A stretch of 64,000 nt of DNA, taken from NCBI GenBank assembly GCA_000004985.1, contig GG738910.1; one strand, given 5' to 3'. Both the position numbers and the translations under genes were made by a program. The notes below the pieces were generated by a model. The model was not told the DNA's origin. It saw only the letters and a program-made list of their open reading frames with translations, and did not search any database. Below are positions 19,777 through 21,447 of the stretch, piece by piece (positions within the stretch are counted from its first letter, which is position 1; every line of letters starts with the position of its first letter). This DNA is from Naegleria gruberi. Taxonomy: Eukaryota.

Positions 19777-21447
19777 TTATTTCCAAGTATTATCATCATT
19801 GAATTCACTTTCATCATTATTAGGATAGTAAAGATTTGCATAAGCAATTCTATACATGGAGTCAAGTACTGCCATTCTCTCTGGACCAAGAAAATCGAAC
19901 TGATTCTTGAATTCATTCCATTCCCTAAAGTTAACCTTTTTCTTAGGCACTTGCAGACCAATTTTAAATAACAAATATCGGGCTAATTTAGTTTGTCCCA
20001 CAACTTGACACATTCTACAAGGAAGGTAATTCTTCAAGCTGGGTTTCATCATCTTAATTGCATGATTGATTTGGACTCTGTCTCTTTCTAGTTCAGAAAA
20101 TCTCTTATTGAATTCATCTTCATTTTCGTTCAACTTTTTCAAATATTGTCCCAACTCATCAATTGAGGAGAAATCATCCACATTGATGAATGCAGATTTT
20201 GGATATTTGAAATCAGCAATATTTGGTGGACCTTTGTAAACCATCAATAATCTTCCGCCATTCTCCATTGCTTTGAAGCCTTCATATAATTTTTCAGTAA
20301 TATAATCTGGAACTACTGAGTTTTCCATGGCAAAGTAAATCTTGCAATTATGTTCAAGTTCGAACATCTTACCTCCTTTAGTTTCATATGCATTTCTACC
20401 ACATTTTCCATATTGTCTAACAGGAATATATTTAGATAGGGTTTCCAATATTTTCAATCTCTGGGATGCATGAGACTCAAATGCACAATTTGAAATAAAA
20501 GCACAAATTCCAGATCGTTTTGGTTGATTTGTTCCAAATTTTTCAGAGGCCAGGTCTATTGGATAATACAAATAAGTTTGAAAAATACTACAATTTCTCA
20601 TGAAACATGATGACAAATCCATTGTTGAAGAAGAGAATCTTTGCTGAGAAGCCTCATCATCTCTGGTCTGGTAAAAGTCAGCTATTTTCTTTCTTGCAAT
20701 CGACTCAACGTTAATGTAGAAGGACAATCTTCTCATTCTTCTCCAGAATGTCTCTCCTAATTCAGAGTCAATCCTATTTGAGACTTGTTCAGGAGTTCCC
20801 TGGAAGTTAGCAATTGATTTTTGAAATTGCTTTACAATATCACCTTCAGGTTGGTCATCTCTTCCGTGAACGACCAAGTCCTCGGAATAATGGTAATGAT
20901 AAATTATTGAATCTAACTGCGTTCCTGTTGCCAACTCGTCACGGGCAAAAGATAAAGAAAACATTTGACAAGAATGTTGTCTTACACAGGTCTTTTCAAC
21001 ACTAATTTCTCTGAACAAAGGAAACATAACTGGTGATGTCAGTTCTCTGTCCTGAAAGCCTATTCTTGTAACTATTGGATCCTTAAACTTTGTGCTACCA
21101 ATAGAATTATGGGACTCCAGCTGTTCCCTATACCATTTGTATGATCCAACGCCGTTGGACATTGTTAAAAGTTGGACAAGATGATGTTTAACATCTTTGC
21201 CCAATAGTTGTACAGGTGTTTCAACAGGAGGTTGGATAGGAGGACTGATGATGGGTTTTGGAGGCTCATTCTTAATAAGAATATTGCCAGCAAACCTCTC
21301 TGACCTCTTTGAAGAGTGGTAATGAACAACAACAATTAAAAATAGGAAAATTACAACAATAATAATAATTGATAATTTTGTTTTTGAGAACATTGTCCTT
21401 TTTGCTTCCCCTTCGCTTTTGTTCGTGCAAGGATCTGTTTGGGTCAT
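19777..21447 (-). CDS. GT10 alpha-1,3-fucosyltransferase paralog 2 (type II membrane protein)
   Basis: 556-aa ORF. TM 'LSIIIIVVIFLFLIVVV'. Motifs 'SYKWYREQLE', 'CAFISNCA', 'KIYFAMENSVVPDYITEKLYEG', 'ARYLLFKIGL'. The alternative start is Met19 at about 21393. It sits in tandem, about 130 bp downstream of paralog 1. Confidence 0.75.
   Translation of the reverse strand: MTQTDPCTNKSEGEAKRTMFSKTKLSIIIIVVIFLFLIVVVHYHSSKRSERFAGNILIKNEPPKPIISPPIQPPVETPVQLLGKDVKHHLVQLLTMSNGVGSYKWYREQLESHNSIGSTKFKDPIVTRIGFQDRELTSPVMFPLFREISVEKTCVRQHSCQMFSLSFARDELATGTQLDSIIYHYHYSEDLVVHGRDDQPEGDIVKQFQKSIANFQGTPEQVSNRIDSELGETFWRRMRRLSFYINVESIARKKIADFYQTRDDEASQQRFSSSTMDLSSCFMRNCSIFQTYLYYPIDLASEKFGTNQPKRSGICAFISNCAFESHASQRLKILETLSKYIPVRQYGKCGRNAYETKGGKMFELEHNCKIYFAMENSVVPDYITEKLYEGFKAMENGGRLLMVYKGPPNIADFKYPKSAFINVDDFSSIDELGQYLKKLNENEDEFNKRFSELERDRVQINHAIKMMKPSLKNYLPCRMCQVVGQTKLARYLLFKIGLQVPKKKVNFREWNEFKNQFDFLGPERMAVLDSMYRIAYANLYYPNNDESEFNDDNTWK

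Follow-up and report, generated by a model that had tools for sequence, protein, structure and literature searches.

Evidence for interlocus gene conversion between two old, inverted GT10 fucosyltransferase paralogs of Naegleria gruberi

Gene conversion among the fucosyltransferase genes FUT1, FUT2 and Sec1 was reportedly described by Abrantes et al. in 2009 (cited in PMC3655985). These genes encode mammalian alpha-1,2-fucosyltransferases of family GT11, and the conversion between them is partial and domain-restricted (PMC4398370; PMC3966225). [quoted passage not shown] Conversion is a general feature of linked paralogs and is well known, also for fucosyltransferases, and the case described here therefore opens no new question. 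It is a new instance, in another glycosyltransferase family (GT10) and in a distant eukaryotic lineage, of a type of event that is already known. A literature search found no paper linking Naegleria with fucosyltransferase gene conversion, and a passage search of a 1988 paper on N. gruberi alpha-tubulin met the words "gene conversion" nowhere but in the title of one of its references.

The window analysed is a stretch of 64,000 nucleotides that, judged by its sequence, is from Naegleria gruberi NEG-M, the genome of which spans 40.9 Mb at 35% GC (PMC9928731 Table 1); the window itself is compact and AT-rich, with 34% GC. Four of its genes match the Pfam glycosyltransferase profile PF00852. Gene A (19777..21447, minus strand) is an intact open reading frame of 556 codons with an N-terminal hydrophobic anchor, and gene B (48442..50199, plus strand) is an intact open reading frame of 585 codons that lies in the opposite orientation on the same chromosome segment. 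Gene C (17830..19650, minus strand) stands in tandem with A and serves as an outgroup that does not share the tract described below, and gene D (52631..54109, plus strand) is a fourth, more distant paralog that lies outside the conversion. The PF00852 E-values are 3.7e-31 for A (aa 309-487), 4.9e-30 for B and 6.3e-24 for D, and the bit scores of A, B, C and D (108.6, 105.0, 95.4 and 85.1, respectively) all exceed the curated cut-off of 23.9. By domain profile, then, all four are GT10 fucosyltransferases of predicted activity, with the family motif present in A and B.

The N. gruberi model P0001 ("Fucosyltransferase") is an exact substring of ORF B that begins at codon 31, ORF C contains an exact copy of P0004 that starts at residue 116 of the ORF, and P0013 (NAEGRDRAFT_59580) is an exact but partial model of ORF D. 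The top protein-database match of gene A is gene B, at 62% identity, and the exact gene A protein was not found in a collection of 15 billion proteins. Gene A thus appears to be unannotated in the public gene set, and one partner of the putative conversion is missing from it and should be annotated.

A and B share a tract in which 369 of 373 nucleotides (98.9%, by codon alignment) are identical between positions 20046..20418 of A (minus strand, codons 344-467) and the reverse complement of positions 49558..49930 of B (plus strand). Its longest perfect run extends over 171 nt (20098..20268, minus strand, opposite 49708-49878 of B), and the four mismatches fall at positions 20377, 20271, 20269 and 20097 of A. 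Three of the four are nonsynonymous (K/N, A/S and S/A), and two share a single codon (GCA versus TCT). These internal differences may be substitutions that followed conversion or may reflect patchy repair of heteroduplex, a sample of four being too small to distinguish the two. The tracts are 29,139 nt apart. The original prediction had paired 20098-20270 with the reverse complement of 49700-49872 as a perfect match; at those positions only 39 of 173 nucleotides agree, and near-identity (172 of 173) appears once the partner is shifted by 6 nt to 49706-49878. The wider range that it described as near-perfect holds, with 316 of 319 positions identical between 20098-20416 and 49560-49878, and the peptide that it quoted for the region is correct on translation; the range is real but was drawn too short, as the tract runs 51 nt further toward the 3' end of the gene.

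Both edges of the tract are abrupt, identity being lost within a few nucleotides at either end. Outside it, identity between A and B falls to 69% in the adjoining 150 nt on the 5' side and to 76% in the 150 nt on the 3' side, and the flanks overall are 65-76% identical, with short perfect runs of 17-22 nt. At either end the replacement keeps register perfectly and stays in frame, free of junction scars, insertions and duplications, and beyond the 373 nt each locus reverts in both directions to sequence that is unique to it. A single inverted repeat pair of 1016 nt and 80% identity joins A and B and ends at the stop codons, past which the non-coding sequences of the two loci are without similarity. 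At the protein level, identity is 98% inside the tract and 58% outside it, in agreement with the original statement that the N-terminal halves are only moderately similar.

Divergence between A and B is accordingly far from uniform along the genes. In the tract dS is 0.015 and dN 0.013 (Nei-Gojobori), whereas in the flanks dN is 0.31 and dS reaches 2.34, a saturated value, silent-site divergence being about 150-fold lower in the tract. A sliding-window plot, which had been proposed as a check on uniform divergence, gives pS of 0.00-0.06 in the tract as against 0.5-0.97 in the flanks, with dS of about 2.3 on both sides. Among degenerate codons that specify the same amino acid in both genes, none of 115 differs in the tract while 98 of 214 differ outside it (Fisher p=1.5e-23). 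When the variable sites were permuted, as in tests of the Sawyer/GENECONV type, a run of 171 nt or more was never obtained in 20,000 permutations, in which the longest run was 45 nt for the whole gene and 83 nt for the conserved C-terminal part by itself; at the flank rate, the binomial probability of four or fewer differences in 373 nt is 1e-45. Comparison with gene C gives a different result for the same segment, with pS in the tract of 0.86-0.87 against A and against B, and with 37 of 60 (A-C) and 36 of 59 (B-C) same-amino-acid codons differing. The mosaic of identical and diverged segments that had been taken as a sign of recent gene conversion or segmental exchange is therefore borne out, both by the disparity in dS between tract and flanks and by the saturation of C.

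The tract encodes 124 residues (aa 344-467 of A) that lie within the 179-residue C-terminal, donor-binding domain recognized by PF00852 (aa 309-487). Inside it, the translations of both A (20290..20325, minus strand) and B (49651-49686, plus strand) contain the sequence ENSVVPDYITEK, which conforms to E-N-X5-Y-X-T-E-K, the invariant GT10 motif that hydrogen-bonds the GDP-fucose donor (PMC12717137), and which aligns with its counterpart in human FUT9 (8D0O); the match covers E-N-X5-Y-X-T-E-K only, out of a motif that PMC12717137 extends by X3-(N/R). Residues E375, N376, D381, Y382, E385 and K386 are invariant in an alignment of 12 sequences. In possessing PF00852, this motif and a C-terminal fold match, the Naegleria proteins resemble the GT10 enzymes of CAZy, among them human FUT9 (8D0O), Arabidopsis FUT11 (9S6A) and H. 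pylori FucT (2NZW), with identities to the solved structures that are low, at 16-24% in fold-search alignments. They differ from the solved structures in an N-terminal region of about 300 residues that has no Pfam match, to an N-terminal GT10 domain or otherwise, and no confident model. An AlphaFold2 model of A built from the 12-sequence alignment has a mean pLDDT of 55.8, with residues 45-198 mostly below 50, and Foldseek searches with this poor model returned GT10 structures as best matches at query-normalised TM-scores of only 0.21-0.27, mainly by way of the C-terminal domain. In the GT-B architecture of GT10 enzymes the N-terminal domain, which is Rossmann-like, is taken to be acceptor-binding, and by analogy the diverged N-terminal part of A and B is a putative acceptor-binding domain. 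The further suggestion that the catalytic core as a whole had been homogenised does not hold, as only 124 of the 179 residues of the C-terminal domain are covered and the remainder of the domain on either side of the tract shows the same silent-site divergence as the N-terminal half. To invoke selection in favour of homogenisation of the tract would go beyond the evidence.

With respect to their ancestry, A and B are old paralogs and each other's closest relatives. The N. gruberi GT10 subfamily numbers at least seven members, the four of the window being joined by P0002, P0003 and P0005 from elsewhere, and A and B are sisters in the tract and non-tract partitions alike (neighbour-joining bootstrap 1.0), the branch between them being near zero in the tract. 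In the flanks all other paralogs share at most 46% amino-acid identity with A or B; P0002 is 46% identical to each, the outgroups are equidistant, and there is no compositional asymmetry between the two genes. Gene D is 48-49% identical to A and B in the tract. A word-indexed search of 5.8 billion proteins for orthologs of A and B returned only N. gruberi paralogs and distant Closterium matches, and an exhaustive HMMER search of 1.84 billion representatives gave none above 43% identity outside N. gruberi. The searched database includes proteins of N. fowleri, Willaertia magna and Acrasis kona, but no ortholog of the A or B type was found among them. In Willaertia magna (L001) and Acrasis kona (L002) the locus of GDP-fucose synthase lacks a GT10 gene and hence a positional ortholog. 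The nearest proteins from outside N. gruberi are the metagenomic P0011, P0012, P0014 and P0015 (ENA metagenome, Logan, JGI/IMG), which fall outside the A+B clade; metagenome contigs gave no matches in either a protein-guided scan or an exact 26-mer scan.

Taken together, it is very probable that about 373 bp of one of these old paralogs has lately been overwritten by the other through interlocus gene conversion. Non-reciprocal copying by homologous recombination would probably begin with a break or gap in one copy, after which the broken copy would invade its paralog, prime templated synthesis there and then rejoin its original duplex, for instance by SDSA. The machinery that this requires is encoded in Naegleria genomes, which have RAD51, DMC1, MSH2, MSH6 and PMS1-2 (PMC9928731). 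The last such event appears to have been recent relative to the duplication, since dS in the tract is less than 1% of the saturated dS of the flanks. What counts against conversion is the identity of the flanks, which at 65-76% is far below the similarity of about 92% that efficient conversion usually needs and would make a first-time conversion unusual, so that initiation needs an extra assumption, either repeated conversion or a homology-poor mechanism. The island is thus probably the remnant of repeated conversion, in which a stretch kept identical by successive events would stay competent for recombination while its flanks drift past the threshold, a history that would also account for the sharp edges. 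The tract lies where the family is most conserved, in the region of the GDP-fucose-binding motif, and residual homology is highest there; even between the unconverted paralogs A and C, nucleotide identity peaks in the tract region (0.56-0.63, as against 0.33-0.54 elsewhere). Its length of 373 nt matches the MEPS scale of mammals. GC3 is 0.30 in the tract and 0.22-0.33 in the flanks, and the tract bears no footprint of GC-biased conversion, the presence of which is not necessarily expected after few events.

Seen beside the mammalian genes, the Naegleria pair resembles FUT1, FUT2 and Sec1 in the apparently non-reciprocal homogenisation of linked fucosyltransferase paralogs over only part of the catalytic-domain region, while the rest diverges. 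The mammalian genes, however, belong to another kingdom, sit in one cluster and had their conversion deduced from multi-species trees, whereas A and B are inverted, 29 kb apart, silent-site saturated in their flanks and known from one genome only. Human interlocus conversion (PMC3966225) likewise involves MEPS-scale tracts of a few hundred bp with abrupt borders and copies that are both kept nearby on one chromosome, but its partners are almost always >92% similar overall, whereas the tract of A and B is an isolated island. The case is mildly unusual in one respect only, namely that an island of MEPS size stands isolated in genes that elsewhere are saturated at silent sites.

Of the other routes to such a tract, template switching during replication, from one inverted paralog to the other (by MMBIR or an inverted-repeat switch), would require microhomology only and would produce the same non-reciprocal outcome. 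No more than 29 kb separates the inverted copies, their flanks are by mammalian standards too diverged for efficient canonical homologous recombination, and the perfect flank runs of 17-22 nt could act as switch points; yet ends that are in register, in frame and free of scars are typical of homology-guided conversion, and the tract sits exactly where homology across the family peaks. No sequence feature decisively separates the two mechanisms, and a template switch is regarded as improbable. More doubtful still is an artefact of assembly or consensus calling, whereby reads belonging to one paralog would have been assembled into the other along the conserved region. In its favour are the failure to find a metagenomic copy and the absence of gene A from the public protein set, but the copies keep four differences inside the tract, and therefore A and B were not collapsed into one consensus; a chimeric join, moreover, gives a single switch, and here there are two within 373 nt with both open reading frames intact. 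Cross-assembly would itself need near-identical reads. Sanger reads, at roughly 600-900 nt, normally span the tract together with diverged flanks, and it is by Sanger sequencing that this genome was obtained (PMC9928731 Table 1).

A reverse history, in which A and B would be young duplicates and both flanks of one would have been overwritten from more distant paralogs, is very unlikely. With at least seven family members in N. gruberi donors are possible in principle, but A and B are still closest relatives in their flanks (58% amino-acid identity, bootstrap 1.0), and with every other paralog at 46% or less there is no identifiable donor, which counts against such overwriting; two separate large replacements would be needed that spared a 373-nt hole, and past the stop codons the non-coding flanks are dissimilar. 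The same segment might finally owe its identity not to copying but to extreme purifying selection at the nucleotide level, whether through an RNA element, an overlapping gene or a codon constraint, and it speaks for this that protein conservation within the family is highest in the segment encoded by the tract, to which the invariant donor-binding motif belongs. Gene C, however, has the same motifs and yet is saturated at silent sites against A and B (pS 0.86-0.87), which excludes a family-wide codon or RNA constraint; overlapping ORFs in the tract do not exceed 57 aa, Rfam has no match to it, and identity stops within a few nucleotides at both edges. The comparison with C effectively refutes nucleotide-level constraint, leaving it with hardly any likelihood. 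The window as a whole is free of tRNAs and of Rfam matches at or above the gathering score; the only Rfam match near the gene, to CrcZ, lies outside the tract and is attributable to chance (18 bits versus a gathering score of 95).

Interlocus gene conversion thus remains the favoured explanation, and on this reading A and B provide a clean single-genome example of the process in a heterolobosean amoeba, in which the homologous-recombination machinery would have been recently active between dispersed paralogs. A practical consequence is that trees or datings of the GT10 family must leave out codons 344-467 of A and B. It is conceivable, but rather doubtful, that the tract is the visible tip of a family-wide, long-running and repeated homogenisation of the donor-binding segment between pairs of GT10 paralogs, with the remainder of each gene free to diverge; if true, self-sustaining "conversion islands" of approximately MEPS size would exist in genes otherwise saturated at silent sites. 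The paralogs P0003 and P0005, on another scaffold, share at the protein level an identical run of 42 residues over the same motif region as against 72% identity elsewhere (12 of 20,000 permutations). Confirmation of such a process in the DNA would mean that the donor module of a glycosyltransferase undergoes modular concerted evolution, and the genome would then directly attest that ectopic homologous recombination is ongoing in N. gruberi. To our knowledge, a sexual cycle has never been observed in this species. In a neighbouring pair of GT18-like paralogs there is no conversion, the longest identical run being 20 nt.

The tracts may also bear on the structure of the chromosome. It is plausible from their sequence and arrangement that an inverted repeat of 373 nt and 99% identity could mediate inversion of the intervening segment, making the pair a potential substrate for inverting a 29-kb block of housekeeping genes. 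Other genes in the window include those for a TAF1-like protein, BiP/Hsp70, fumarase, HMG-CoA reductase, and WD40 and F-box proteins.

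A second pair of GT10 paralogs, P0003 and P0005, is not part of the window but is encoded on another N. gruberi scaffold, which is 261,328 bp long. These two proteins share a perfectly identical run of 42 residues (CGKNAQEGPGGKTFEIENNCRFYYAAENSIAKDYVTEKFFEG) that covers the same donor-motif region as the near-identical tract shared by the fucosyltransferase paralogs A and B, and they are 72% identical outside the columns of the A/B tract. In permutations, such a run was obtained in 12 of 20,000 cases. Judged from this protein-level comparison, the P0003/P0005 pair may carry a second conversion tract. 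A conversion tract was also sought in the head-to-head GT18/MGAT-like paralogs of the window (21498-22883, minus strand, and 22933-24333, plus strand), which share 53% amino-acid identity and have patches at 72-74% nucleotide identity; none was found, the longest identical run being 20 nt.

Fucose-pathway genes are grouped at 45080-54109 on the plus strand, together with 17830-24333, an arrangement that is unusual in a eukaryote. In the plus-strand cluster, mannose-1-phosphate guanylyltransferase (45080-46078) is followed in turn by GDP-fucose synthase (46887-47894), FucT B (48442-50199), GDP-mannose 4,6-dehydratase (51146-52312) and FucT D (52631-54109), with FucT C, FucT A and the two GT18-like genes lying 25 kb upstream. 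In Willaertia magna and Acrasis kona, the locus that carries GDP-fucose synthase lacks comparable fucose-gene neighbours. Within N. gruberi, the GDP-fucose synthase of the window has a 93%-identical paralog, P0159, and the location of P0159 on the same 261-kb scaffold as P0003 and P0005 suggests that the fucose gene cluster has been duplicated. The GDP-mannose 4,6-dehydratase gene itself consists of two ORFs (51146-51403 and 51431-52312, plus strand), separated by what looks, from its sequence, like a short GT...AG intron, the candidate being about 51 nt in length (gttctt...atttag, at about 51353-51403 on the plus strand).

Gene A (19777-21447, minus strand) is an intact GT10 ORF of 556 codons that has no counterpart in public protein collections, where its top match is gene B at 62% identity, and its exact protein sequence was not found among 15 billion proteins. 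The N. gruberi gene set appears to omit gene A. The ORFs of genes C (17830-19650, minus strand), B and D are longer than their public gene models. The model of gene C, P0004, starts 115 codons inside the ORF, past a hydrophobic, anchor-like segment (SPFIMLIVVIILICLLCAFVG), that of gene B, P0001, starts 30 codons inside, and that of gene D, P0013, comprises only the last 318 of 492 codons. The annotated N-termini of all three models may be truncated.

Between the genes for HMG-CoA reductase and BiP lies a stretch with few ORFs (38300-42600), in which a 173-aa ORF (40144-40665) has no Pfam match. This stretch, which includes 50-nt inverted repeats of 88% identity (38919-38968 and 41185-41234) and a 51-nt direct repeat of 94% identity (at 38574 and 40104), may represent a decayed mobile element.
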